From: Methylococcaceae bacterium UBA2780
GTDB lineage: Bacteria; Pseudomonadota; Gammaproteobacteria; Methylococcales; UBA2780
Direction: 5' to 3'
DNA: 64,000 nucleotides
Assembly (NCBI GenBank): GCA_002352345.1
Contig: DEIG01000009.1
Span: 7,573 to 71,572 of the forward strand
Position numbers and translations under genes: made by a program. Below are positions 9,696 to 36,320 of this stretch, one piece after another. The notes beneath the pieces are model-generated. The model was not told the origin of the DNA and made no database searches. It saw only the letters and a program-made list of their open reading frames with translations. Position 1 is the stretch's first letter. The number at the start of each line of letters is the position of its first letter.

Positions 9696-10082
9696 ATGCT
9701 AAAAGAATTCACACCTGTTGATTTCACTAAAGCTTTAGAATCTATGCAGAAAATTGCTGACCTAAACGTTGCTAAAATTGAAGCTGCTGTTGAAGCTCAA
9801 AAAGCTGCTGCTCAGTCTTTAGTTGAACTAACAGAAGCTCGCGTTAAAGCAGCTACTGAAATCAAAGATTACGATGGTTTTGTCTCTTTCGTAAAAGAGC
9901 AATCAGAACTTGCACAGTCTTCTGTTGAAAAATTAGTTGAAGATAGCAAAGTCGCTGTTGAAGATGCACAAGCATACGGCGAAGAAGTTCAGAAAATTTT
10001 AGGCGAAGCAACTGAAGTTCCTGCTGCTAAACCTGCTGCTAAAAAAGCTGCTGCTAAACCTGCTGCTAAAAAAGCTGCTTAA
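9696..10082 (+). CDS. phasin family protein with C-terminal AAKP/AAKK histone-H1-like tail (paralog 2)
   Basis: Phasin core about 70% identical by eye to paralog 3. Tail is VPAAKPAAKKAAAKPAAKKAA. GGAG SD. Confidence 0.85.
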   Translation: MLKEFTPVDFTKALESMQKIADLNVAKIEAAVEAQKAAAQSLVELTEARVKAATEIKDYDGFVSFVKEQSELAQSSVEKLVEDSKVAVEDAQAYGEEVQKILGEATEVPAAKPAAKKAAAKPAAKKAA

Positions 10083-10260: not shown

Positions 10261-10605
10261 ATGTTAAACGAAATACCTGCATTTGATTTTCAAAAAGCGC
10301 TTGCACCTTTCCAGAAATTAGTTGAACTAAACGTTTCTAAAATCGAAGCTGCTGTTGAAGCCCAAAAAGCTGCAACTCAAGGCTTGGTTGAACTGACAGA
10401 AGCTCGCGTTAAAGCTGCTTCAGAAATCAAAGATGCTGATTCATTCAGCGCTTTCGTAAAAGAGCAAGCTGAGCTAGCACAGTCTAACGCTTCAAAAATG
10501 ATCGAAGACAGCAAAGTTGCTGCTGAAGAAGCTAAAGCATACGGTGAAGAAGTTCAGAAAATCATCACTGAAAGCATCGAAGAAGCTAAAGCTAACCTGA
10601 AATAA
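10261..10605 (+). CDS. phasin family protein (paralog 3)
   Basis: MLNEIPAFDFQKALAPFQKLVELNVSKIEAAVEAQKAATQGLVELTEARVKAASEIKD...; AGGAG SD. Confidence 0.85.
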   Translation: MLNEIPAFDFQKALAPFQKLVELNVSKIEAAVEAQKAATQGLVELTEARVKAASEIKDADSFSAFVKEQAELAQSNASKMIEDSKVAAEEAKAYGEEVQKIITESIEEAKANLK

Positions 10606-10696: not shown

Positions 10697-12808
10697 CTAC
10701 CATTCGTAGTTTGCTGTTACATACATATTGCGGCCTGGCCCAGGCAACCGATTTGCTTGGTTGTTACCCATAACCGTTCCGCCTACATCAGCATTTTGAT
10801 TATTACGATTATAACCACCTAAATGATCTGAGTATTTTTTATCCAGGACATTCTCAATGCCAAAAGCGATCGTCACCTGACTAGCTGGCACATACTCACC
10901 TCGCAAGTTCAGCAACCCATAACCGCCTGTTTTCTCTTCAGAATTTTCGTCTGAAACTTTGTTCTGAGCAGCATAACCAACCACCTCTGCTTTCGCAGAC
11001 CAGGTTGCTTTTTCGTAAGTTAGTGCCACGCGACCATTTAAAGGTGCAATCCGGTATAGATCATCACTTGTATCGCGGCGCTTACCACGAATATAGCTCA
11101 GACTACCGTCCAACCTTACATTAGCAGCCAAAGAAAAACCCCAAGCAGCATCAATACCATAAAGTTTTGCATCGGTATTAGTAAATTGGAGCGTTCCTGC
11201 GTTTAGAACCAGTGCGTCAGCATTTGTGGCTGGAGTCCCTTGAATATAATCATTGACGTGATGATAGAAAACACGCGGTGTTAGATAAGCTCCATCTTGA
11301 TGCCAATTCACACCAAACTCGGCCTGATAAGAAACCTCAGGATCAAGTTCAACATCACCAATATAAACGCGACCATCTGCTAAACCAGCAGTTGATTCAA
11401 GTGGCAACCAAAGATAACGCTCCTGATAACTCGCTGAACGTGTTTTACGTGCCAAACCATATTCTAAGTCAACCGTATCAGAGAGCGCCTGTCTTAAAAC
11501 CAAAACTAAATCAACATTAGTATCTTCTTGGGTTCTATCACTCGCATTAAAAGCCGTTTGGAGCGCCAAATGCCTAGCCCCCATCATAGCCATCATTCCA
11601 CCCGCGCCACTTATGCTGCTAAAAACGTCATCAGCATCCATATCAACTCTTGTTACACGAGCACCAGCCTCTAAATTAAATGAAGGAGCAATATCCCCAG
11701 TCCATTCAGAAAAAACACCATAGCGATCACGCTCTACCCCACTGTAATTGGTGATATGAAACATCGCATTTGTTGGATCGTAGATATCTGCATCGTGATT
11801 TGCATCATCGCCATCAAAACCGATTACCAAATTTCCACCCAGTGCCGGCATATTAAAAGCCAATTTATAGCTACCGCCATCAACAGTTGTATAGGCAAAA
11901 CGGTGCATTGGGTTACCCATCATTAAGGGTGGTGTTCTATATAGTTCATTACTCATCAAATGACGCGAATCCTGATAAGAAATTTTTGCTTCTATGCCAT
12001 ATCCATCCGTTGTTTGGAATTTATAGTCACCGCTAACAATCCCACCACGCGCATAAACGATATCCATTGGTAGTGCTGGCGTGCCAGTATGGCCCGTATC
12101 ATTATTACTGTAATCAAAACCAAACTCATGATCGCCTGTGCGAAGTCCATAACCTATCGCATAAGAGTCACGATCATACTGTGTATTAAAATTGGTATCG
12201 TTGCCATCAAAGTTGTAACTATCACCCTTCTCGCCAGACCACGCTAAGTGGGCACGTTGCGTATCATTCGCAAGCGAGGTCAGTAAAGAATAACGTTTAC
12301 CATTATCAACATCGCTGTAACCGGCTGAAAGCTTACCGTGTGACTCAACTTCAGAGCTTGAGCCAAACCGACTACCCGATGACTTCATCACCATGCTACC
12401 GCCAATTGTTTCAAGGCCACTGCTAACAGGCGCAATCCCGCGATAAACTTCAAGCGCACCCGCCATTGCTGCAGGGATGTGACTAAGCGGTGGATCCATA
12501 CTGTTAGGCCCCGCTGCTTTCACATGCACGCCATCAACCATCACATTGACTCGATCCCCATACATGCCACGATATTGTGCAATACCGGTAAGCGGGCCAT
12601 TACGGTTTACATTTGCACCTGGGATGCGTTTTAAAAGCTCTGCCGCATCCACAGAGCTTTCTGTACCTGGATTAACGCCTGTCAGGCCAGGGCGAACAAT
12701 TTCACCCTCAACCAAAACTGGCGCTAGCTCAGTATGTTCAGCGAGTACCTGTAATGGTAGGCTGGCCGCTGTTGCGATAAACAACGAGCGTGCAATTTTA
12801 TTAGTCAT
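10697..12808 (-). CDS. TonB-dependent outer-membrane receptor (substrate unknown, possibly metal)
   Basis: Signal peptide. Plug domain (APVLVEGE...DAAELLKRIPGANV...YRGMYGDRVNVMVDG). Long beta-barrel ending ...NMYVTANYEW. No Cys, so it lacks the OprC-type CxxxM/HxM copper site. Confidence 0.9.
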   Translation of the reverse strand: MTNKIARSLFIATAASLPLQVLAEHTELAPVLVEGEIVRPGLTGVNPGTESSVDAAELLKRIPGANVNRNGPLTGIAQYRGMYGDRVNVMVDGVHVKAAGPNSMDPPLSHIPAAMAGALEVYRGIAPVSSGLETIGGSMVMKSSGSRFGSSSEVESHGKLSAGYSDVDNGKRYSLLTSLANDTQRAHLAWSGEKGDSYNFDGNDTNFNTQYDRDSYAIGYGLRTGDHEFGFDYSNNDTGHTGTPALPMDIVYARGGIVSGDYKFQTTDGYGIEAKISYQDSRHLMSNELYRTPPLMMGNPMHRFAYTTVDGGSYKLAFNMPALGGNLVIGFDGDDANHDADIYDPTNAMFHITNYSGVERDRYGVFSEWTGDIAPSFNLEAGARVTRVDMDADDVFSSISGAGGMMAMMGARHLALQTAFNASDRTQEDTNVDLVLVLRQALSDTVDLEYGLARKTRSASYQERYLWLPLESTAGLADGRVYIGDVELDPEVSYQAEFGVNWHQDGAYLTPRVFYHHVNDYIQGTPATNADALVLNAGTLQFTNTDAKLYGIDAAWGFSLAANVRLDGSLSYIRGKRRDTSDDLYRIAPLNGRVALTYEKATWSAKAEVVGYAAQNKVSDENSEEKTGGYGLLNLRGEYVPASQVTIAFGIENVLDKKYSDHLGGYNRNNQNADVGGTVMGNNQANRLPGPGRNMYVTANYEW

Positions 12809-12984
12809 CCTCTACTCCTTAGATTTTGAAATCATTAAAACAAATGTACTTTATGTACAACAAACGTTGCGATTATTGCAAAAACCACACCGGCTTATGC
12901 GGGAATTGATAAAACTGTGTCAAATAACACACTTGTAAACCGCTAATTGGATTACCCAGTCTAATCTGTTAGATTTACTCGGCT

Positions 12985-13680
12985 ATGCATCTTGATCAAT
13001 CATTCAGCGCCTCTTACCCCGCCGCACTCACTATGGGGCTACTCACTTCAGCCCACTGCATGGCAATGTGCGGCTCGATTATGGGCGCCTTAACACTCAG
13101 CCTCCCTGAAGAGATCAGGAACAATAAGTTACGCATACTACCCTATGTCGCCAGCTACAATCTCGGCCGAATCAGTAGCTACGCCTTAATTGGGTTTCTC
13201 GTCGGATTTGCTGGCCATATGATCACCTTTTCACTCGGTGAAGGGGGTCTTGGGCACCGTGCAGTGCAACTTTTTTCAGCTGCCTTTATGATCAGTGCAG
13301 GACTTTACATTGCAGGTTGGTTCCCCCGCTTTGCCTTTATTGAAAAAGGAGGCGGTCTACTTTGGAAAAGAATTGAGCCATGGGGCAGGCGCTTTATGCC
13401 AGTTAGCAGCATTAGACAGGCCTATCTATTCGGGGTTATTTGGGGATGGCTTCCTTGTGGATTAATCTATGCTGCACTTATTCTGGCAGCAACAACTGGA
13501 GACCCAGTTCGTAGTGGCATCACAATGCTGATGTTCGGGATCGGCACATTGCCAGCCGTTATGACAACAGGTATCATGTTGAATTATATGGTTAAACTTG
13601 CACGATTGCCGTGGTTTAGACCCATAACAGGGCTTGTAATTATCGCCACTGCACTTGTAACGATTTTTCCATATATGTAA
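12985..13680 (+). CDS. TauE/SafE - DsbD_2-like polytopic membrane protein with HCxxMCG motif
   Basis: About 6 TM segments and N-terminal TSAHCMAMCGSIMG. It resembles the COG2836-type proteins often found next to metal/cbb3 maturation genes; this is recalled, not searched. Confidence 0.6.
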   Translation: MHLDQSFSASYPAALTMGLLTSAHCMAMCGSIMGALTLSLPEEIRNNKLRILPYVASYNLGRISSYALIGFLVGFAGHMITFSLGEGGLGHRAVQLFSAAFMISAGLYIAGWFPRFAFIEKGGGLLWKRIEPWGRRFMPVSSIRQAYLFGVIWGWLPCGLIYAALILAATTGDPVRSGITMLMFGIGTLPAVMTTGIMLNYMVKLARLPWFRPITGLVIIATALVTIFPYM

Positions 13681-13723
13681 TAAAAATAATAAAAAGCAAA
13701 AAAATTAATTTTAGGGGTAGTTC

Positions 13724-14671
13724 ATGGAAGCATTTAAGACACTCATTGGGCAGTCGGCCCAAATGGAATCACTTGTTCGTAGCGCCCGAATGGTTGCGGG
13801 AACAACAGCCGCGGTCTTAATCAAAGGCGAAACAGGCACAGGAAAAGAGCTCCTTGCAAATGCTGTTCAGGCATCTAGCCCTCGCTCCTCTAAGCCTTAT
13901 CTAACTATTAACTGTGCGGCTTTGCCCGAAAGCATTGCAGAATCAGAGCTTTTTGGGCATCGCAAAGGCGCCTTCTCTGGCGCAGACAGCAACCAGCAGG
14001 GGCGATTAACTGCTGCTCATGGCGGCACCGTTTTTCTAGATGAAATTGATTCATTACCACTACCCATTCAGGCAAAACTTCTACGCTTTTTAGAGACAGG
14101 CGAGTGCCAAGCCGTCGGGGAAACCGTAAACCAAAAAGTTGACGTTAGAATTATTGCTGCGACCAACAGCGATCTACACGAAAAGGTGGCGAGCGGCCAG
14201 TTTAGAAAAGATCTCTATTTCCGCTTAAATGTAGTCCCTCTTGAACTGCCATCACTTAGCGAGCGCCGCAGTGATGTAAAACTTCTTACAACACACTTTT
14301 CTAAAATGATCGCTAAAGGTCATGATCGTATCCCGATCAGCTTCAGTAAAACGGCACTTCAATCGTTAGAGGCCTATCACTGGCCAGGTAATGTTAGAGA
14401 GCTTCGCAATCTTTGTGAGCGGCTTTCAATCTTAATGCCTGGGCGCCTGCTTGAGCCAGAAAATTTGCCTCTTGAACTAAAACGGAATCAGGTGCTTCAA
14501 GAAGGATCCGTTCACCTACCGGCCTCTGGAATAAAACTTGAAAATGTTGAGATCGATCTGATTCACCAAGCGCTTGAAAGAAGTAGCGGCAATAAGAGCA
14601 AATCAGCTCGTTTGCTTGGAATTAGCAGAGATACTCTTCTTTACAGGATGCGCAAGTACGAGATGCGCTAA
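13724..14671 (+). CDS. sigma54-dependent transcriptional activator lacking an N-terminal sensory/receiver domain (PspF-like architecture)
   Basis: AAA+ core begins at residue ~5 (LIGQS...GETGTGKELLANAV, ESELFGHRKGAFSGA, GGTVFLDEI, RIIAATN, WPGNVRELRN). C-terminal Fis-type HTH (NKSKSARLLGISRDTLLYRMRKY). Confidence 0.9.
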   Translation: MEAFKTLIGQSAQMESLVRSARMVAGTTAAVLIKGETGTGKELLANAVQASSPRSSKPYLTINCAALPESIAESELFGHRKGAFSGADSNQQGRLTAAHGGTVFLDEIDSLPLPIQAKLLRFLETGECQAVGETVNQKVDVRIIAATNSDLHEKVASGQFRKDLYFRLNVVPLELPSLSERRSDVKLLTTHFSKMIAKGHDRIPISFSKTALQSLEAYHWPGNVRELRNLCERLSILMPGRLLEPENLPLELKRNQVLQEGSVHLPASGIKLENVEIDLIHQALERSSGNKSKSARLLGISRDTLLYRMRKYEMR

Positions 14672-16322: not shown

Positions 16323-17108
16323 ATGACGCTAACGCCTTTTAAAATTTTCCGCATTTTATTGCTGCTTGCCATTTTGGCTGCCACCGCTTTTTACACGAAA
16401 GCGCAACGACTCTCTTCAACTGGCTGGTTAGAACCACTGGAAATTATTATTTACCCAATCAATGCAGATGGAAAAGAGTCAACCGCACGTTATATCAACC
16501 AGCTAAAAGAGGGCGATTTTCAATCAATAGACCGCTTTACTGCTAAACAAAGCAAAAAATACGATATCCTAACTAAAAAGCCAACCATTACGCGGCTTGG
16601 AAACACCGTCACCAAATTACCACCCAAAGCTCCAACACCAAATGACTCAGCCCTCTCAAATATACTTTGGAGCATGAAATTTCGCCTGTGGGCTTGGCAA
16701 GAGACACCCGATGATCTTTCCAACAAACATCGCGCTAGAATGTTTGTGCTTTACCATACGCTGACTGAAGGCCAACGGCTTGAGCACTCCTACGGATTAA
16801 ATAAAGGACTTCTTGGCCTTGTAAACGCATTTGCATCAAAAGAACAGACCGCGCAAAACAGCATCGTCATTACCCACGAGTTTTTCCATACCGTTGGCGC
16901 TACCGACAAATATGGCCCAAATGGAAACCCAGTTTTTCCTGAAGGGTACGCCTCTCTCGAGAATCAAAGGTACCCTCAACGGCGCGCAGAAATCATGGCT
17001 GGAAGAATACCAATCTCAGAAGGGCACTCACGCATGGCTGACAGCTTAAGACAATGTGTTGTCGGCAAGAAAACAGCACAAGAAATAAATTGGCTCCCTA
17101 ACATTTAA
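16323..17108 (+). CDS. membrane-anchored hypothetical protein with HExxH motif
   Basis: N-terminal TM segment (FKIFRILLLLAILAATAFY). VITHEFFHTVGATDKY suggests a zincin-like site. I recognise no family. Confidence 0.55.
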   Translation: MTLTPFKIFRILLLLAILAATAFYTKAQRLSSTGWLEPLEIIIYPINADGKESTARYINQLKEGDFQSIDRFTAKQSKKYDILTKKPTITRLGNTVTKLPPKAPTPNDSALSNILWSMKFRLWAWQETPDDLSNKHRARMFVLYHTLTEGQRLEHSYGLNKGLLGLVNAFASKEQTAQNSIVITHEFFHTVGATDKYGPNGNPVFPEGYASLENQRYPQRRAEIMAGRIPISEGHSRMADSLRQCVVGKKTAQEINWLPNI

Positions 17109-23725: not shown

Positions 23726-23788
23726 TGTTTCCCAAATAAAAAACCCTCTCTCACCAATGCAAAAGAGGGTTTTGCTATAAAAGTAGTG

Positions 23789-24604
23789 TTATTTTTTAGA
23801 TGGTTTCATCCGCTTATAGGAATCTGGGTATATTGATCCAGAAATTCCAGGGATGCTCGGCAAGTCACCACTTCCGCCATTAACTTTAAACTGCCCTTTC
23901 ATTCCCTTCTGCATATGCTGTGAAATGTCACAATGCACTAGCATTGTTTTTGCGTCACTCGCCACAATAAAGGTTCCAGTTCTTTCACCCGGTCCATTCA
24001 CCTCCAGATGAAACATCCCTTCAGGATATATATACTTTGGCAAGCCATGCATCATCCATTGATGCCGAACGCTGTCCTCATTGATAAATCTTACCGTCAC
24101 TCGACTACATGGCTTAACATTCCACTCGTTGCTATCAAAACCAAATATTGTCCCGTTATGGGTCGCATGTGCTGTACCTGCTTTTACGGTAAAACTAACA
24201 TCTTCTGATATTTTTTTGCAGTCACGAGGCAACGTGTCACTATTGGCATTCATTACCATGCCCTTTTCATCCATATCCATGCCGGCCATACCCATATCGG
24301 CACCACAGCTTCCCTCACCCATCTTCATTCCTGCGCCGCATTTTCCTTCAGCCATTTTGGCGGCCTCACCTTTTCCTCCTTCAGCTACCGGCGCTTTTGT
24401 CTTGCCCATACTTCCACATTTTCCTTCGCCGCATTTACCCTCTGGCATCTTGACTGTTTCAGCCTCTGCAAGCATATAGCCTGAAGCCAAATCATTTGTA
24501 GAAAACAGTTCCTCTGAGCATTGAGCTGCCATTGGCAACCCGACAGATGCTGTAGCAACCGCCGACCCTACCAATATACTTGATGATTTATTTAATCTTT
24601 TCAT
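23789..24604 (-). CDS. secreted cupredoxin-domain protein with N-terminal EGKCG-repeat / Met-rich low-complexity segment
   Basis: ATG at 24604 with a GAGGAA SD; the track start is a TTG at 24637. Signal peptide MKRLNKSSSILVGSAVATASVGLPMAAQ. Then PEGKCGEGKCGS...AEGKCGAG..GEGSCGADMGMAGMDMDEKGMVM. The C-terminal ~150 aa are beta-rich with type-1 Cu-like ligands (RHQWMMHG ... HCDISQHMQKGM, spacing C-x4-H-x4-M). Confidence 0.8.
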   Translation of the reverse strand: MKRLNKSSSILVGSAVATASVGLPMAAQCSEELFSTNDLASGYMLAEAETVKMPEGKCGEGKCGSMGKTKAPVAEGGKGEAAKMAEGKCGAGMKMGEGSCGADMGMAGMDMDEKGMVMNANSDTLPRDCKKISEDVSFTVKAGTAHATHNGTIFGFDSNEWNVKPCSRVTVRFINEDSVRHQWMMHGLPKYIYPEGMFHLEVNGPGERTGTFIVASDAKTMLVHCDISQHMQKGMKGQFKVNGGSGDLPSIPGISGSIYPDSYKRMKPSKK

Positions 24605-24639
24605 TACAATTTCCTCTTCAGTAAAAGTCGCTCCCAACC

Positions 24640-26247
24640 TTATTGGTTACGATCAACTATTCCGAATTTGTCTGCATTCTCTAAAGTCCCCCAAACAGGA
24701 TAAGTTCTGTCGTAGTACTCATTTGTGAAGAACTTGGTCAGATCCGTTCCATTTACTCTTGGCAACCCATTTTCGGTTAGGAAACTTTCGTAAACGATCA
24801 CGCTGACGTTACCACCTGGCATAGCGCTATCTGTTGTTATTCCAAATTCATTATGGTCATGAAACAACCAGACACCTTCGCCATAGTTATGCAAACCGTC
24901 ATTAGTCGTATTCAGCTCAAGATCAACCCGCTGCGCGCCCATTAGGGAATAAATATCACGCGTAATTTGTGCGCTAGGGTTATGCTCAATACCATCATAA
25001 TGAGTAATCGTCGCCTTATGCCCATGCGTATGCATTGCAAGCATATCTTCTCCACCATTAAACATTCGTAACTTAACCTTCTCATTTGGGGCCACAATAA
25101 CCAATGACTCGGGAATGGTATAAGGGAAGGATTTTCCGTTTAACGTGAAGTATTCAGGCTTTCTGTCCGCAAGTTTGTAATGCTGATTCATTGCCTCTGC
25201 AATCAATCGTGGATCGTTATACTGCTGTATGATGTTATGCAATTCTTTGTCGGACCCAATATATTGCAGGTCATACTCACGATCATAAACCTCTTTAATG
25301 GCGACAGATGAATGTCTTACATGGCCATCGCCAACATTGAATGTTTGCACCCAATTATTAGGTCTGTTCTCTTCAATGATGAACATCCCAATTAACCCCA
25401 TTAGAATATGCGTGCCAGTTTGTACATGACAATGGTAAACCATTGTTCCTGTCTGCCTAGGTTGAAAACGGTAGGTGAAACTCTCTCCAGGTTGAACCAT
25501 CGCCCCTTCAGGTGATGGAAAGGTTTGAGGGACACCATCATTCCCACTTCCATCTTCCTGCATATATGGGTGATCAACACCATGCAAATGGATTGTATGT
25601 GGAAAATAGTGTGTGTTTTCTAATACAAGCTCAATCTTATCTCCCTGTTCTACTCTGATCGCAGGAGATGGCATACGTATATATGGATTCGCGTAAGTTG
25701 TCTCATTATTCGCTACAACCATACCTCGAGTTTTCGGTGCAAACACCCAAAATCCTGGTTGCACACCTGGTGCAATATCGTAAGCTGGGAATGGCGTATC
25801 TAAATCGGGGTCTCGTCCATTTATCTCTGCAACTTCTAGACGAATTCTTATAACATCAGGGTCACCATCACCATCAAGATCGTCACCTTTTGTGACGGTA
25901 TCAGGTGAAAGTTGCGTTTCCATTAAAGTCGCCATTGAGACATTATTCGTCCCCTTAACGAAGGTAGCGATATCAAAGGGGTTATCTGGACTGCACAGTT
26001 TTGAGGCAGAAATTTCAACACCTTCAATAACCTGCTTTTCACGCCAGCTAGCATCAATTGTTTCAGGACAGACCTCAGCCATCCTGACTTTGCCCATTTC
26101 TGCTTTTTGTGTCGGAGGTGGCTCTTTGTATGCAGGAATAGATATAGTTTTCCCGCTGTCTGTTTTTAGAGAGCTACCATTCTCACAGGCAGTTAACAGC
26201 CCCATAGAAACTACGACAGCTGTTGCTAACACATTTCTTTTTATCAT
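24640..26247 (-). CDS. multicopper oxidase family lipoprotein (two-domain-type motif arrangement)
   Basis: Lipobox LLTAC. Cu motifs in order: HTIHLHG, YHCHVQTGTHILMGLIGM, AMHTHGH, WLFHDH. Acidic DDLDGDGDPD loop in a ~190-aa N-terminal extension. Confidence 0.85.
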   Translation of the reverse strand: MIKRNVLATAVVVSMGLLTACENGSSLKTDSGKTISIPAYKEPPPTQKAEMGKVRMAEVCPETIDASWREKQVIEGVEISASKLCSPDNPFDIATFVKGTNNVSMATLMETQLSPDTVTKGDDLDGDGDPDVIRIRLEVAEINGRDPDLDTPFPAYDIAPGVQPGFWVFAPKTRGMVVANNETTYANPYIRMPSPAIRVEQGDKIELVLENTHYFPHTIHLHGVDHPYMQEDGSGNDGVPQTFPSPEGAMVQPGESFTYRFQPRQTGTMVYHCHVQTGTHILMGLIGMFIIEENRPNNWVQTFNVGDGHVRHSSVAIKEVYDREYDLQYIGSDKELHNIIQQYNDPRLIAEAMNQHYKLADRKPEYFTLNGKSFPYTIPESLVIVAPNEKVKLRMFNGGEDMLAMHTHGHKATITHYDGIEHNPSAQITRDIYSLMGAQRVDLELNTTNDGLHNYGEGVWLFHDHNEFGITTDSAMPGGNVSVIVYESFLTENGLPRVNGTDLTKFFTNEYYDRTYPVWGTLENADKFGIVDRNQ

Positions 26248-26431
26248 TTTCTTTTACCTCCAAACTCATTCATCGCACCAACAGTCTAAAGCCATTTTCG
26301 CGAAGTGTTTTCACAGCCAATCAATATGCAACGGGCATTTAACGAGCTATGGTTGAATTCCCCTGGGGAGGTCTCTTTTCACACAAAAGATGCTTGGCTT
26401 TATTATTTTAATTCGCCATTACATCAGATTT

Positions 26432-26962
26432 TTAGGCCATTTTCTTGTATGTTATTGCTCCGCCTACAGCCACCGCAACGGCAAGAAGAATCCAAACTGG
26501 AAAGCCTCCACCCATGCCGACAGCAAATGGGAAGCGTGAAACAATTTCCTCATCACCATCTTTGATAGTAACGATACCTACAAACTTACCTTCTTTAGGA
26601 AAGCGATGCTCAAAACTAATGTTACCAGTTGGATATACTTTGAATGGCATATGTAAAATCGTATTCGCATCCGTCGCTTCAGCTTCTGCCTCACCTTCAA
26701 TAACCCTAATTTCTGTTGGGAAATTTTTCATTTTTCGATCCATTGCATCCATTGCGACAATGGTTAGACCTGTTGAAGGGATATCTTCACAAAACTCTTT
26801 TGTTGCTGAACTGTCTGGTTGGTAACCAGTGAAATGCATTTTATATGCACCAATTGTTAGGATGCATAAATCCTTATCTGCTGATAAACCTCCATGAGCA
26901 CTTGCTGTCGTCGAAAAAAAGAAGAGTCCGAACAATAATGCAGCAATCGTTTTATTAAGCAT
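26432..26962 (-). CDS. PmoD/AmoD-like periplasmic protein with C-terminal TM anchor
   Basis: Immediately downstream of pmoB. Signal peptide ending ASA|HGG, about 125-aa soluble domain with C33-x8-M42-H43, Gly-rich linker and one C-terminal TM helix (FPVWILLAVAVAVGGAI). Assigned by position and architecture, not by a search. Confidence 0.55.
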   Translation of the reverse strand: MLNKTIAALLFGLFFFSTTASAHGGLSADKDLCILTIGAYKMHFTGYQPDSSATKEFCEDIPSTGLTIVAMDAMDRKMKNFPTEIRVIEGEAEAEATDANTILHMPFKVYPTGNISFEHRFPKEGKFVGIVTIKDGDEEIVSRFPFAVGMGGGFPVWILLAVAVAVGGAITYKKMA

Positions 26963-27008
26963 AAATCCTCCAAATTAGAATATAGTTATATTTTACTTCT
27001 TTCAGGAA

Positions 27009-27048
27009 TAAAAAAACCCCGCTCGATTAATATATAAATCGAGCGGGG
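27009..27048 (-). terminator. rho-independent terminator after pmoB
   Basis: 12-bp stem ccccgctcgatt/aatcgagcgggg (27017-27028 / 27037-27048), followed on the minus strand by T6. Lies 21 nt after the pmoB stop. Confidence 0.85.
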
Positions 27049-27068
27049 TTCTGTCTAGCTAAATATTC

Positions 27069-28307
27069 TTACTGGAATGTAGGAATAATTGGGCCAGAAA
27101 TTTCTTCCATATAGGTTTTGCCATCAGCGCCTTGGAAGTATAGAACTCCACCAAAAGCACTATCAGGATCACCAATAAGACTTGAAAGTCTTTCTGTTTC
27201 CCATAAAGCGTCACTCGCTTCAATTTCTAAACGCGCAGTTTCACCCGGATAGATAGTTGGTTCACCTTGAACATTCAAACCATCTTTAGCCCAAAGTTCA
27301 GCACTGTCTGTTTTAGCTAGCGTTGGAATCAAGCTATTAGTAAAACGAACGTTAGCTGAGTTGAACTCCGCAAGTTTGATTGGTGTTGCAGAACCGTTAG
27401 TTATATCCAATGTCATTGTCATTGAACGACCTGGAATTCTGTAGTTAGCTTTAAGGATCTTAGCTTTTACTGCAGAGTTCTGAGGTGTTACAGGCAGTGC
27501 TTCAACGGGAATGATCGCACTTTGCAGTGGAATCTGAACAGGATACTGCTCTTTTGCTGAATTAGAGCTCATTGTAACCAGAACGATCGTACCAATAAGA
27601 AGTGCAATACCAACTTTCTTATCTGTTGACGTGATCAATGCATCTTCTTCACCATTCTGCACCATTAAGAAGCGTGGAATGAACAGAGGACGACGCACCC
27701 AATATAGAACCCAGAAAAGTGCTGGAATAGCCCAAATAATGTGCCATTTAACAACATTCGCAAAGCCATATGTATTTAGGTCGATTGCTTCACCAGTCAA
27801 AGTCGTCACAGGGTATGTAAAGTCTTCGTAAACACCTTCGATTAGTGTCCACTGCCCTGGACCAACTAGGCCACCAGCACTCTGCACATTAAGCATAGGA
27901 TGGATATGCGCCTCACCAGGCTTACGTCCACGAACAATAACTTTATATTCGTAGGTTTTTCCTAGTTCAAGCTTAAATGATTTAGCAGCTGGAACGCCGT
28001 TCAACCAAGTTTCAACTTTTGCTACAGCAGGACCTGGCTCAGCAACGTGAAGATAGGCAACATCAGGCTTCATGATAACTTCTGGCCATGCTTCCGCCAA
28101 AAGGAATTTACCTGTAATAGTCATCTCTTCATTAACAGCAACTCTGTTTGTTGAAAAGTTAGTGTCATACCAGTGAACGGTACGCATACGGAGAAAAGGC
28201 TCCTGCGAACGTTCCCCATGAGCACCCGCTTGAGGTGCATACAATGCTGTCAATGAAGTGACAATAACCGCCACTCCACCTAGCAATGAGATAATTTTAT
28301 TTTTCAT
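27069..28307 (-). CDS. pmoB: copper membrane monooxygenase subunit B (PmoB/AmoB family)
   Basis: Signal peptide then mature N-terminus HGERSQEPFLRMRTVHWYD. HIHPMLNV (HxH Cu-B ligands). Two central TM helices and a C-terminal cupredoxin domain. 412 aa. Confidence 0.93.
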   Translation of the reverse strand: MKNKIISLLGGVAVIVTSLTALYAPQAGAHGERSQEPFLRMRTVHWYDTNFSTNRVAVNEEMTITGKFLLAEAWPEVIMKPDVAYLHVAEPGPAVAKVETWLNGVPAAKSFKLELGKTYEYKVIVRGRKPGEAHIHPMLNVQSAGGLVGPGQWTLIEGVYEDFTYPVTTLTGEAIDLNTYGFANVVKWHIIWAIPALFWVLYWVRRPLFIPRFLMVQNGEEDALITSTDKKVGIALLIGTIVLVTMSSNSAKEQYPVQIPLQSAIIPVEALPVTPQNSAVKAKILKANYRIPGRSMTMTLDITNGSATPIKLAEFNSANVRFTNSLIPTLAKTDSAELWAKDGLNVQGEPTIYPGETARLEIEASDALWETERLSSLIGDPDSAFGGVLYFQGADGKTYMEEISGPIIPTFQ

Positions 28308-28355
28308 CTAATTAATTCCTCGGTAATCGTTATTAATTTACCTTGGTGCACCTTG

Positions 28356-29144
28356 TTAGGCGCGAACCTTAGCTGCTTTATCGAAGATGCTCTTCATCCA
28401 GCGCATTTTTGCGCCGACAGCACCTAGTTTCCACCATGCTGTATACATAATCATGCAGATAAATGCAGCGAAGAAAGAGGCGATCAATGCAGATTCACCA
28501 CCGAATGTACGTAGTGTTCCACGTTCAATCATTCTTAGGTATTCAGGTGTCGCTGTTCTAACGAATGCGTAGCCAACCATATCAGCAACTGACATCAGCT
28601 GACCCATGTGCTCAACTGGAACATGGTAAGGAGCAAGAATAACGATATTTTGCGCATAGAAAAGTAGCGCAAACAGTGGAGCACCAACAATAGCAGTTGC
28701 GACCCAATTCTTCGTCAACATAAGGACAGCATCAAGAACTAAAGCGCTCGCAATAAGCATCGCAGGCCAAGTTAGCGTAGCTGGAAAACCAGACCATATT
28801 GTAAAACCCCAGTAACGGTTCATCCACTCACCAAATAGCAGTGCAACGATACATAATGTCGCGCCAAGTGGAACCCTAAAGTATTCCCATAGTACATATT
28901 GAATAGCAGCAGGGAACGTAATCGCTACGATTGGTGTAATTGTGATCCAGAAACGTCTATCTTTCCAATCCACCCAAAAATCCCAGTCACCCGCGAGCAA
29001 CATAAAGTGAATGTGAAATGCGCCAGTAATGGCTAAAAACAATATAGGCACAAGCAGCAAGTCAAACTTTCTTGACATACCCGCCATAACAGGTGATAAA
29101 TCACCCGCTGATTTCGCGCCTACAGATTGAGCTGTTGCACTCAT
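28356..29144 (-). CDS. pmoA: copper membrane monooxygenase subunit A (PmoA/AmoA family)
   Basis: HIHFMLLAGDWDFWVDWKDRRFWITITPIV, GEWMNRYW, TPEYLRMIERGTLRTFG. AGGAG SD. 262 aa, about 15 aa longer than the canonical proteins I recall. Confidence 0.93.
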   Translation of the reverse strand: MSATAQSVGAKSAGDLSPVMAGMSRKFDLLLVPILFLAITGAFHIHFMLLAGDWDFWVDWKDRRFWITITPIVAITFPAAIQYVLWEYFRVPLGATLCIVALLFGEWMNRYWGFTIWSGFPATLTWPAMLIASALVLDAVLMLTKNWVATAIVGAPLFALLFYAQNIVILAPYHVPVEHMGQLMSVADMVGYAFVRTATPEYLRMIERGTLRTFGGESALIASFFAAFICMIMYTAWWKLGAVGAKMRWMKSIFDKAAKVRA

Positions 29145-29218
29145 AACTGCCTCCTAACAAAGAATTTATATTTAAATTTAATCCCATCAACCAAAGTCAA
29201 TTCGGTCGAGGGGAATTG

Positions 29219-29248
29219 AGTATACGACCATTCCATCACGTGTTGCAA
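29219..29248 (-). promoter_or_regulatory. candidate internal sigma70 promoter for pmoA-pmoB
   Basis: Minus strand reads TTGCAA (29248-29243), 18 nt, TATACT (29224-29219). Lies about 75 nt upstream of the pmoA ATG and downstream of the pmoC terminator. Confidence 0.4.
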
Positions 29249-29451
29249 GGGTTTCGGAGCAATAAACCATATAATTAAACCGCTTTTTTACCCCTTAAAC
29301 TATTGACTTTTATTTTTTCTGCATTCCAATCAATTTCTGCTCTTCACAGAACTTCTTTTCATTACTGAAATCCCATTGCCATTCCAGATGAATTTTCTTG
29401 ATCCAGTAATTTACTTCCACACCTCTATTATTCTTTTGCTTTAAATTTTAC

Positions 29452-29485
29452 AAAAAAAATGCCGGAGGTTTTCACCTCCGGCATT
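29452..29485 (-). terminator. strong rho-independent terminator between pmoC and pmoA
   Basis: 12-bp stem aatgccggaggt/acctccggcatt (29458-29469 / 29474-29485), 4-nt loop, then T8 on the minus strand. Lies 46 nt after the pmoC stop. Confidence 0.85.
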
Positions 29486-29530
29486 TTGAGCCATATTTAA
29501 CGCTTAGAACTTACACTCTAATGCTAAATA

Positions 29531-30361
29531 TTATTTACCATACATATCACAGTATTCCATTGACTCATCTCTTAGTGGCATAACTTCTCCACCTTTTCCG
29601 TCGCTAGACATTTTCATCAATACAGCCATACGAATAGCAACTTGAAGAGCCAAACCAGCCAACATAAGTACTGTCCACCCTAGAACAACGAAGCCCCAGT
29701 GTAGTGGCGCAGTGAAGTACTCTTCCATTAGCCAGAAAGCATGTCCCCATTCGTTGTAGCCAACGTTTGGAAGAATCATGAAAGGACCAACAACTGCGAA
29801 CAGGTATGGGATTGAGATTTTAGATGCGAAATCAGGAAGTCTTGTTCTCGCATAGATAAAACCAGCAACACCAATCATGATGTAAACAGGCATTGTGCCG
29901 TAGAACAATACAATGTGGCTTGGTGTAAAGCTTGTATCACGTACCACTACCTGATGCCATGAAGCATCCTGCTCAGCGAAAAAGCTCGCTGCCCAGTAAA
30001 CTGCCATCGCATAAACAAAGATCCAACCGATCAAAGTGAAATAACGTTTCAACTCTTCATCAGCTGAAATATTGAAAACGTTTAAGTCACGCGTCTTCCA
30101 CATGTAAGACCAAAGCAATACACAACCCGCTGCTTCAAGTGTTACTTCCCAGTAGAAAAGTGACATCCAGTACTCGTCAAAAATTGGATCAGTTGAATCA
30201 AGACCCGCATACCATGCAGCCCACTGCTGATAAACACGAAGAGACACCACATAGATCAAATAGACAGCTGTCGCCATCCACGCGTATTTTAAGTTGCCGT
30301 AGACATTAACCGAGGGCTTCGCTCCCGATTTAGCTGCGACATCATGTGTAGTTGTAGCCAT
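29531..30361 (-). CDS. pmoC: copper membrane monooxygenase subunit C (PmoC/AmoC family)
   Basis: FAEQDASWHQVVVRDTSFTPSHIV (D-x3-H-x12-H site) and NEWGHAFWLMEEYFTAPLHW (N-x3-H-x13-H site). About 6 TM segments. AGGAG SD. Confidence 0.93.
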   Translation of the reverse strand: MATTTHDVAAKSGAKPSVNVYGNLKYAWMATAVYLIYVVSLRVYQQWAAWYAGLDSTDPIFDEYWMSLFYWEVTLEAAGCVLLWSYMWKTRDLNVFNISADEELKRYFTLIGWIFVYAMAVYWAASFFAEQDASWHQVVVRDTSFTPSHIVLFYGTMPVYIMIGVAGFIYARTRLPDFASKISIPYLFAVVGPFMILPNVGYNEWGHAFWLMEEYFTAPLHWGFVVLGWTVLMLAGLALQVAIRMAVLMKMSSDGKGGEVMPLRDESMEYCDMYGK

Positions 30362-35687: not shown

Positions 35688-36320
35688 TCAGCGAAGTTTT
35701 CTCTGCAGCCCCTCTTCCAGCACCCGATCCCTATACTCCTGGCTCGGCTTGTCAAGGAGAACACCACTAAAGCTTCCCACACCACCTCTTTGAGACTTTT
35801 CATTCCTAACAACTAAACCGGCCATCTCAAAAACATCACCACCAGGAAACTCAACCTTTAATGAGACTTTTTTATTAACACCAAATCTTTTGCCGCAAAC
35901 CAGTCCTATCCCATTCACACTAAAATCCAGCAAGCAGGCTCTTTTTAGCTCTGACCACTCAAAAAAACCAACTGGTTTAACAAAAACTCTAACCTCACTT
36001 GCTGTATAGCGTGCTGCGGCTCTGTTTTCACTACTCTCAACGGATTGTATTGGTGGCTTAACACGATCCCAGCCGTGATGAATCATCGTGTCATGCCCAC
36101 TTCCCTCAACAAGCTCCAGCGCCTCGCACCCAACAAGGTCAATTTCAATAAACCCTTCAGGCGAAATCTGCTCAGCCTTCATATGCTTTCGGTCTAGGCG
36201 GTCAAACAGGGGTTTCTTCTCGTCCATATGCGAGGATTCATCTGCCGACACAAGATAAGGCGAGAACTTTACTCCAGCACCTCTATTCTTTTTTAGCTGA
36301 ACAATTTTATCTTTTTTCAC
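35688..36320 (-). CDS. PilZ domain protein with unknown N-terminal domain
   Basis: C-terminal RAAARY (RxxxR), then about 30 aa, then DFSVNGIG (DxSxxG). I do not recognise the N-terminal ~110 aa. Confidence 0.65.
   Translation of the reverse strand: MKKDKIVQLKKNRGAGVKFSPYLVSADESSHMDEKKPLFDRLDRKHMKAEQISPEGFIEIDLVGCEALELVEGSGHDTMIHHGWDRVKPPIQSVESSENRAAARYTASEVRVFVKPVGFFEWSELKRACLLDFSVNGIGLVCGKRFGVNKKVSLKVEFPGGDVFEMAGLVVRNEKSQRGGVGSFSGVLLDKPSQEYRDRVLEEGLQRKLR

Follow-up and report, generated by a model that had tools for sequence, protein, structure and literature searches.

A copper monooxygenase gene cluster of the marine ethane clade and its recurrent multicopper oxidase-cupredoxin gene pair

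Copper membrane monooxygenases (CuMMOs) start the oxidation of methane, ammonia and short-chain alkanes, and the purified enzymes are far less active than whole cells. How these enzymes acquire their copper and what donates their electrons in vivo are open questions. To our knowledge, PmoD is the sole CuMMO accessory protein studied so far. Which other proteins might serve such an enzyme is the question raised by a gene block in a 64,000-nucleotide stretch of contig DEIG01000009.1 from Methylococcaceae bacterium UBA2780 (the window, 64 kb in length). At positions 23789-30361 of the window, the minus strand encodes the C, A and B subunits of a CuMMO, in this order, and then a homologue of PmoD/AmoD, a multicopper oxidase (MCO) that is a lipoprotein of the two-domain type, and a secreted type-1 cupredoxin whose tail contains EGKCG repeats, here called CUP. 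In the reading that we favour, with middling confidence, the block is an ethane-clade CuMMO cluster joined to a probable pmoD-MCO-CUP sub-operon for a periplasmic, membrane-tethered copper-handling oxidase.

The monooxygenase and its gene block

The block consists of six consecutive minus-strand open reading frames (ORFs) of 276, 262, 412, 176, 535 and 282 amino acids (aa):

29531..30361, minus strand: CuMMO subunit C, 276 aa; Pfam AmoC 6.7e-94; NCBIfam AmoC_BACT 344 bits against a cutoff of 319
28356..29144, minus strand: CuMMO subunit A, 262 aa; Pfam AMO 4.2e-97
27069..28307, minus strand: CuMMO subunit B, 412 aa, with signal peptide; Pfam Monooxygenase_B 4.8e-146
26432..26962, minus strand: PmoD/AmoD homologue, 176 aa; PDB 6CPD (PmoD), E=8.9e-20 over residues 31-149
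24640..26247, minus strand: lipoprotein two-domain MCO, 535 aa; Pfam Cu-oxidase_3 and Cu-oxidase_2
23789..24604, minus strand: secreted cupredoxin CUP, 271 aa from the most likely start, ATG 24604; the ORF reaches TTG 24637 (282 aa)

A first, sequence-only reading had placed six co-oriented genes of these identities and in this order on the minus strand; the ORF list and the Pfam, NCBIfam and PDB matches agree with it in coordinates, identities and order. The plus-strand ORFs within the block are antisense shadows that overlap the six genes and are without family support. The closest genome in GTDB, the Guaymas Basin gammaproteobacterial metagenome-assembled genome B19_G6 (locus L004), carries the same six genes at 84-94% identity.

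The first three genes clearly belong to the CuMMO family: they stand in C-A-B order, Pfam matches range from 1e-94 to 1e-146, and the NCBIfam AmoC, AmoA and AmoB_BACT models score above their cutoffs. Compared with Methylococcus capsulatus PmoC, subunit C keeps two ligand sets, that of CuC (D..H..H within EQDASWHQ...PSH) and that of CuD (N..H..H within NEWGH...APLH). Subunit B, whose best solved relative is PmoB of 6CXH (E=2.6e-125), keeps the CuB ligands of solved particulate methane monooxygenase (pMMO), namely a His at the N-terminus (AHGERSQ) and an H-x-H motif (EAHIHPM). The copper-ligand residue numbering underlying the comparison of B and C follows M. capsulatus pMMO.

The closest named relatives of subunit A are 'methane monooxygenase protein A2' of Methylococcaceae bacterium ET-SHO, at 94% identity, and A2 of ET-HIRO, at 87%; further relatives, at 52-54%, are hydrocarbon enzymes of Haliea and Cycloclasticus. 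ET-SHO and ET-HIRO are reported to be marine isolates that assimilate ethane without growing on methane, and their sequences anchor the 'emoA' cluster from 13C-ethane stable-isotope probing (PMC4036023, PMC4678205). Two canonical assignments were considered and rejected. A canonical pMMO is contradicted by the grouping of A with the A2 proteins of ET-SHO and ET-HIRO, and by a TIGR03080 score of 314.1, below the cutoff of 318.15. A canonical ammonia monooxygenase (AMO) is made less likely by identities of just 49, 49 and 42% to AmoC, AmoA and AmoB of Nitrosococcus oceani. The 'equivalog' cutoffs of NCBIfam AmoA/B/C_BACT were passed, yet Cycloclasticus hydrocarbon enzymes bear the same label, so that 'bacterial Amo' is uninformative here. 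Against solved pMMO and AMO chains, C and A scored alike, and B favoured the gammaproteobacterial pMMO. Neither hao nor other nitrifier genes were seen in the window. Judged from its sequence, the enzyme of the block is a complete CuMMO of the marine ethane/short-chain-hydrocarbon clade, and the initial label 'pmoCAB-type' is imprecise for an enzyme whose A subunit is 94% identical to that of an ethane-assimilating isolate.

The three accessory copper proteins

The PmoD homologue has no Pfam match. Behind a signal peptide it has a copper-binding domain with a C33-x8-M-H motif (CILTIGAYKMH) and another Cys at position 58, and its hydrophobic C-terminus, FPVWILLAVAVAVGGAITY, forms a transmembrane helix; together with the match to 6CPD, the motif, the second Cys and the C-terminus place it in the PmoD/AmoD family. 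The motif falls in the Cx8MHxnC (AmoD-type) class, which is tied to amoD in amo and pmo operons, CuA being formed by the Cx7MxH class only (Fisher et al. 2018, PMC6189053).

The N-terminus of the MCO, MIKRNVLATAVVVSMGLLTAC, is a lipobox in which LTAC was read directly from the sequence. Its best matches by both sequence and fold are 2ZWN and 3G5W, the latter being the blue copper oxidase of Nitrosomonas europaea; the AlphaFold2 model (pLDDT 72) matches these two and also 9CCK. In an alignment of 48 homologues, residues H217/H220/H222, H272-C273-H274, H280, H406/H408 and H463/H465 are invariant. They form the HxxHxH, HCH...H, HxH and HxH motifs of a two-domain (type C) MCO, a kind of enzyme that is a homotrimer with its trinuclear clusters at the interfaces, and provide the complete ligand set of the trinuclear copper cluster. 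Conserved as strongly as the catalytic domains is an N-terminal extension of ~190 aa that solved two-domain MCOs do not have. Between residues ~60 and 190 it shows invariant C60, C85 and D123-x-D-x-D-G-D-P-D131, and its DxDxDGDPD stretch would seem to resemble a calcium-binding loop. Methylococcales, Nitrosococcus and marine Nitrosomonas have homologues with 58-66% identity across more than 90% of the length.

CUP yields a weak Cu-oxidase_2 match and has its EGKCG repeats in the N-terminal third. The sequence-only reading had started the gene at TTG 24637; we favour ATG 24604, because the identical database protein P0001 is annotated in this way and the family alignment agrees. A search for relatives returned 1867 homologues. 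Behind the signal peptide, two parts can be distinguished:

24302..24442, minus strand: Cys-repeat tail of CUP, EGKCGEGKCG...EGKCG...EGSCG; predicted disordered, HvfA/oxazolin-like
23825..24280, minus strand: cupredoxin domain of CUP, opening with the conserved hairpin M109-D-M111-D112-x2-G-M116-V-M118-N and bearing the type-1 ligands

In its C-terminal domain, CUP shares 50-67% identity with homologues from Nitrosococcus, Nitrosoglobus, Methylococcales, Binatia and other groups, and residues 110-260 are modelled by AlphaFold2 with pLDDT above 90. Among 70 homologues, the type-1 ligands H181, C225, H230 and M235 are invariant or nearly so, as are C129, C166 and the hairpin (M109-x-M111-D112-x2-G-M116-V-M118-N); three histidines outside the type-1 site, H186, H199 and H224, are invariant. 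Foldseek retrieved generic cupredoxins, auracyanin, NirK, two-domain laccases and CueO, with no specific solved relative from the fold search. Model, fold matches and ligands agree in making CUP a type-1 (blue) cupredoxin. Its best PDB match by sequence is 9CCK, where it aligns to MCO domain 1, so placed that H181-x4-H186 and H224-C225 fall on MCO/NirK-type ligand positions, which in those enzymes serve type-1 and inter-domain copper. CUP was also considered as a paralogue of domain 1 of the window MCO, a candidate that we rejected: BLASTP aligned just the Cys-His loop (E=0.04), which suggests a shared ligand geometry, homology not being demonstrated.

As a separate observation, H186 and H224 stand at positions that give type-2 copper ligands in domain 1 of NirK, and for a cupredoxin of one domain, half of an interfacial copper site is an unusual feature. 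An extra interfacial copper site on CUP is possible from this arrangement of residues.

In the AlphaFold2 model, residues 43-105 of CUP have pLDDT below 50. The tail holds one exact EGKCGEGKCG and the partial motifs EGKCG and EGSCG, thus showing repeated EGKCG behind a Sec signal peptide as in HvfA and other oxazolins. The NCBIfam model KCGExKCG_twice is passed by the window CUP marginally (20.1 bits against a cutoff of 19.5) and by five relatives, the range over all six being 20-35 bits. The full-length HvfA equivalog model NF050188, with a cutoff of 95, gave 31.6 bits for the window CUP and 18-39 for its relatives, all below it. Across lineages the tail is hypervariable and always rich in Cys, His or Met: EGKCG repeats are found in the window clade and several other hydrocarbon-type loci, His-rich tails in Nitrosococcus and Binatia, Met/His repeats in Nitrosoglobus and a short HH/M stretch in freshwater methanotrophs. 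P0005 (192 aa, with its own signal peptide) shares 85% identity with the window CUP in the cupredoxin domain and lacks the EGKCG tail altogether, while another close relative keeps it (comparison with P0366 and L004). The tail has therefore been gained and lost over short evolutionary distances.

Linkage to monooxygenase genes and possible function

We scanned one genome per GTDB species, which gave at least 587 loci with CUP relatives, and analysed the best 80 of these by tblastn with the six window proteins. In about 75 of the 80, the gene immediately upstream of CUP codes for an MCO. The order C-A-B-D-MCO-CUP, where D is PmoD, was observed in L004, L049, L069, L083 and L022, and with two PmoD paralogues in L084, all of them gammaproteobacterial. 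We further observed D-C-A-B-(D)-MCO-CUP in Binatia (L074, L078) and a deltaproteobacterium (L059), A-B-MCO-CUP on a Methylomirabilota contig (L046), and D-MCO-CUP in L030, L063 and L080. In L085 and L086, MCO-CUP comes first and a FadL-like gene and C-A-B-D lie ~4 kb downstream of it; in N. oceani (L002) it is separated from amoCABD by one opposite-strand gene. In all three, the pair is within 5 kb of CAB-D. The CuMMO subunits in these syntenic loci are just 24-49% identical to those of the window, so a single island of recent spread does not account for the arrangements. When all ORFs within 3.5 kb were clustered without supervision, the only neighbours of the pair common to different lineages were PmoD and the CuMMO subunits. 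As this holds in Gammaproteobacteria, Binatia, Methylomirabilota, a deltaproteobacterium and N. oceani, gene neighbourhood makes a functional link of the three accessory copper proteins with CuMMO well supported. The sequence-only reading had proposed a search for such synteny in other genomes, and its expectation stood: the pair recurs beside PmoD/CuMMO in at least nine separate lineages and three gene orders.

Some of these loci show features of their own. In L084 (3652-10768), a 29-aa ORF is called between C and A, and two PmoD paralogues of 186 and 210 aa lie between B and MCO, reminiscent of amoE/amoD; a pyrroloquinoline quinone (PQQ) dehydrogenase and a cytochrome c gene follow ~7 kb downstream. 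L085/L086 (1-20698) carry EGKCG-type MCO-CUP and C-A-B-D within a hydrocarbon-oxidation island, which also encodes an outer-membrane channel of FadL/Toluene_X type, an aldehyde dehydrogenase, a ligase resembling acetyl-CoA synthetase and a subunit of a soluble di-iron (Phenol_Hydrox) monooxygenase.

How the six window genes may be transcribed was judged from a consensus scan for terminators, whose hits are predictions:

29456..29487, minus strand: predicted terminator-like hairpin after C; 14-bp stem and T-run, within the 386-nt C-A gap (29145-29530)
27013..27052, minus strand: predicted terminator-like hairpin after B; strong, 16-bp stem with 8 G-C pairs and T-run
23740..23773, minus strand: predicted terminator-like hairpin after CUP; 15-bp stem and T-run, 16 nt past the CUP stop codon, ending the block

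The hairpin after B begins 17 nt past the stop codon of B and lies ~50 nt before the start of pmoD. The same scan detected no terminator-like site between pmoD, MCO and CUP, and good ribosome-binding sites precede pmoD (GGAGG) and MCO. Because of the strong hairpins after C, B and CUP, the block is likely divided into the sub-operons C, AB and pmoD-MCO-CUP, with read-through possible. C in particular may be transcribed or processed apart from A and B. The C-A gap of the window was inspected for a small ORF akin to that of L084; with TTG, GTG and ATG starts it held only unconvincing ORFs of 27-36 aa. The block had at first been described as a self-contained module. The linkage of three copper proteins to the CuMMO upholds this description in part; a single transcript is doubtful in view of the hairpins after C and B. 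As initially read, the flanks are of housekeeping type, now supported by family matches: on one side an MltF-type SLT/SBP_bac_3 gene, then tadA-, guaA- and guaB-like ORFs, on the other a VTT/YqaA-like, a SlyX-like, a YkuD and an Lpp-like ORF. The absence of copCD was likewise confirmed, since Pfam and NCBIfam scans and the reading of all ORFs of at least 100 aa found no CopC, CopD, MNIO or DUF2063 in the 64-kb window.

Going beyond gene identities, conserved metal ligands, pairing and synteny, we infer the following route for copper. The disordered N-terminal tail of CUP would capture copper, chiefly Cu(I), and pass it to the Met/Asp hairpin (MDMD..GMVM) that opens the cupredoxin fold. The type-1 copper of CUP would take an electron and hand it on to the type-1 site in the two-domain MCO, whose trinuclear cluster would reduce O2 to water. 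MCO-CUP would then be a split version of archaeal MCO4, in which the cupredoxin is fused to a two-domain MCO; in that protein (Nmar_1354, 9CCK) the pendant type-1 cupredoxin is 13.5 Å from the type-1 site of the two-domain MCO (PMC11761707). The lipid anchor of the MCO and the transmembrane helix of PmoD could keep the system close to the membrane. Near CuMMO and PmoD, it would in effect regulate the copper pool of the periplasm together with the redox state of that pool, serving either to load the copper sites of these proteins or to protect against Cu(I) under the high copper flux that such organisms require. In M. capsulatus without copper, the pmoD homologue MCA2130 changed by -3.9 and the adjacent MCO gene MCA2129 by -2.4 (PMC6688271; PMC4831470 supplement). 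As far as these candidate counterparts can serve as a guide, lower levels without copper fit a role at high copper flux and not in scavenging.

The evidence as a whole favours copper handling and oxidation over electron supply. In the latter scheme, PmoD (with a CuA-type centre) and CUP (type-1 copper) would shuttle electrons to or from the CuMMO, with the MCO as an alternative sink or regulator. Redox-type copper sites are present in all three accessory proteins, their genes are syntenic with CuMMO, and PmoD has been put forward as an electron-transfer partner for these enzymes, whose physiological reductant has yet to be established (PMC13058606). However, an MCO drains electrons to O2 and does not supply them, the PmoD motifs beside the pair vary (Cx8MH, Cx8M, Cx9H) where CuA arises from Cx7MxH only (PMC6189053), a hypervariable, metal-binding tail such as that of CUP has no evident use in pure electron transfer, and most methanotrophs have the pair away from their CuMMO genes; such a chain is in our view rather unlikely. 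We think about as little of a further proposal, which is compatible with copper handling and differs in its chemistry. Here the EGKCG tail would be a genuine HvfA/oxazolin-type domain of a ribosomally synthesized and post-translationally modified peptide (RiPP), modified by an MNIO-DUF2063 pair encoded elsewhere; its cysteines would become oxazolone/thioamide or thiooxazole Cu(I) chelators, and CUP a protein-bound, methanobactin-like scavenger feeding the CuMMO. In its favour, the EGKCGEGKCG unit is exactly that of the HvfA repeat AEGKCGEGKCG, the window CUP and five relatives pass KCGExKCG_twice, the weak HvfA-model matches extend over the segment before the repeats, and the Sec signal peptide is as in oxazolins; also, stand-alone precursor genes exist, and Buf_EGKCG precursors in genomes without MNIO are very few (PMC12452194). 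Yet MNIO and DUF2063 were found neither in the 64-kb window nor up to 10 kb away from the EGKCG-tailed homologues (L084, L085 and L086), the HvfA equivalog score (31.6) is far under its cutoff of 95, and CUP is missing the two N-terminal cysteines important in HvfBC recognition. Moreover, P0005 has no Cys tail and other lineages have His- or Met-rich tracts in its place, so that unmodified thiolates would be sufficient for Cu(I) binding. MNIO modification of the CUP tail in trans is possible but unsupported.

That the pair oxidises not copper but a by-product or metabolite, such as hydroxylamine or NO, Fe(II), or phenolic or quinol compounds, appears decidedly improbable. The closest fused analogue, Nmar_1354, does oxidise NH2OH (PMC11761707), the closest solved bacterial relative, 3G5W, is from an ammonia oxidiser, and CUP retains the NirK-like His positions H186 and H224. 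But the pair is common to methane, ethane and ammonia oxidisers, which makes a nitrogen-specific substrate unlikely for an ethane-type organism, and the composition of the tail points to metal binding. The least credible explanation, which we rejected on the synteny, is coincidence, MCO-CUP being a general copper-resistance system that merely happens to lie beside CuMMO. It could appeal to the housekeeping flanks, to the strong hairpin between B and pmoD and to the separation of the pair from CuMMO in most Methylococcales loci and in Nitrosomonas aestuarii. Chance adjacency would nevertheless occur in ~0.5% of genomes (a 20-kb neighbourhood in a genome of ~4 Mb), against adjacency in at least nine separate lineages, with CuMMOs 24-49% identical to that of the window, three gene orders, and PmoD and CuMMO as the only neighbours common across lineages.

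Several points weigh against the copper-handling oxidase that we favour. Given the hairpin after B, pmoD-MCO-CUP may be expressed independently of CAB. The pair is widespread in methanotrophs and ammonia oxidisers, usually away from CuMMO genes, and in most canonical Methylococcales and in N. aestuarii it is not near them; it may thus belong to general copper homeostasis and not be CuMMO-specific. The organisms named among the CUP matches are almost all from CuMMO-bearing groups, and genome-wide co-occurrence with CuMMO is read from these names only. MCA2129 is a candidate orthologue of the window MCO, and the putative cuprous-oxidase role is argued by analogy from CueO and PcoA. Finally, a simple electron relay leaves the invariant H186, H199 and H224 of CUP unexplained.

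CuMMO clusters with pmoD or amoD are already known, and PmoD-MCO adjacency has been mentioned in passing (PMC6189053, PMC6688271). The suggestion that this accessory set is new beside a CuMMO therefore does not hold for the adjacency of PmoD and MCO, and the MCO-CUP pair itself is widespread. We found no description in the literature of the pair as a unit, of its cross-phylum synteny with CuMMO/PmoD, of its position upstream of the N. oceani amo operon, or of the variable, HvfA-like tail of CUP. The most far-reaching proposition, which we regard as speculative and improbable as a whole, is that MCO and tailed cupredoxin form an unrecognised, broad CuMMO accessory system that acts with PmoD to load or maintain copper, the tail of the ethane clade being of HvfA type and MNIO-modified in trans. 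If true, MCO-CUP could be the 'missing component' that explains why pMMO and AMO show low activity once isolated, and ethane-clade CUP would be a protein-tethered, methanobactin-like chalkophore. An HvfA-like tail would tie hydrocarbon oxidisers to the copper chemistry of MNIOs and oxazolins. As a conserved accessory unit beside PmoD, the MCO with its cupredoxin of lineage-specific, copper-binding tail offers concrete candidates for genetics and biochemistry in tractable methanotrophs and nitrifiers that have this pair, and the locus records the accessory gene set of a poorly described CuMMO clade of marine ethane oxidisers.

Elsewhere in the window, the minus strand encodes a TonB-dependent receptor at 10697-12808; of the NCBIfam models it matches that of the TonB-dependent copper receptor family best, with 204.8 bits where the cutoff is 472. 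Its divergent neighbours are a DsbD_2 membrane protein (12985-13680) and a sigma-54 activator without receiver domain (13724-14671). This region, 10697-14671, about 11 kb away from the CuMMO block, is possibly a locus for copper uptake and regulation. Tandem Phasin_2 genes at 9696-10082 and 10261-10605 suggest polyhydroxyalkanoate storage. Two ORFs, 16323-17108 (261 aa) and 35688-36320 (210 aa), had no Pfam or NCBIfam matches.

Comparison with known systems

The nearest known enzymes are the 'emoA' CuMMOs of ET-SHO and of ET-HIRO, sharing the A subunit at 94% and 87%, respectively. They are known from sequence deposits and brief mentions, where accessory genes are not described (PMC4036023, PMC4678205). 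A counterpart among gammaproteobacterial ammonia oxidisers is amoCABD of N. oceani ATCC 19707 (CP000127, L002 8308-16548). It shares C-A-B followed by amoD/pmoD of Cx8MH type and has, within ~1.6 kb of amoC, an MCO of 561 aa (60% identical) and a cupredoxin of 339 aa (domain 64% identical). There the pair lies upstream of amoC, with an opposite-strand HAD hydrolase gene in between, whereas that of the window lies downstream. The N. oceani cupredoxin also differs in its His-rich tail and C-terminal membrane anchor, the substrate of the enzyme is ammonia, and its CuMMO subunits are 42-49% identical to those of the window. A literature search with the locus tags Noc_2504 to Noc_2506 returned nothing.

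The extended pmo and amo operons of alphaproteobacterial methanotrophs and betaproteobacterial ammonia oxidisers share with the block CAB, a gene of the PmoD family and periplasmic copper proteins (PMC6189053). They carry copCD; the window lacks copC, copD and PCuAC and has MCO and the tailed cupredoxin downstream instead. Some PmoD classes were noted near MCO genes in that survey, in which the MCO-cupredoxin pair was not dissected (PMC6189053). The adjacency of pmoD and MCO is also shared by M. capsulatus MCA2130 (pmoD homologue) and MCA2129 (MCO family), which are not beside pmoCAB and for which no cupredoxin partner is mentioned; we liken them to the window genes as candidates and not as established orthologues.

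With HvfA and other oxazolins (Buf_EGKCG), CUP shares the Sec signal peptide and the EGKCGEGKCG motifs, which in HvfA bind Cu(I) once modified: the MNIO HvfB, with HvfC, turns the cysteines of the AEGKCGEGKCG repeats into Cu(I)-binding heterocycles (PMC11252979). In the window there is no adjacent MNIO, DUF2063 or DoxX, the repeats are far fewer and the tail is fused to a cupredoxin. A survey of the Buf_EGKCG family lists fusions to EF-hand domains only and leaves cupredoxins unmentioned (PMC12452194).

Archaeal MCO4 (Nmar_1354 of Nitrosopumilus maritimus, 9CCK) likewise combines a two-domain MCO with an extra type-1 cupredoxin in a host that lives by a CuMMO. It has been described as archaea-only, with NH2OH oxidation as its known activity (PMC11761707). 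Its cupredoxin is fused at the C-terminus, whereas CUP is encoded by a separate gene, carries a metal-binding tail and, when aligned to 9CCK, falls on MCO domain 1 instead of the pendant domain. CueO and PcoA/CopA, the latter with PcoC/CopC, are three-domain MCOs with a Met/Asp-rich Cu(I) element near the type-1 site and sometimes a small copper-binding partner. From the motifs, the two-domain MCO of the window would differ in receiving its substrate-binding element from a separate cupredoxin.

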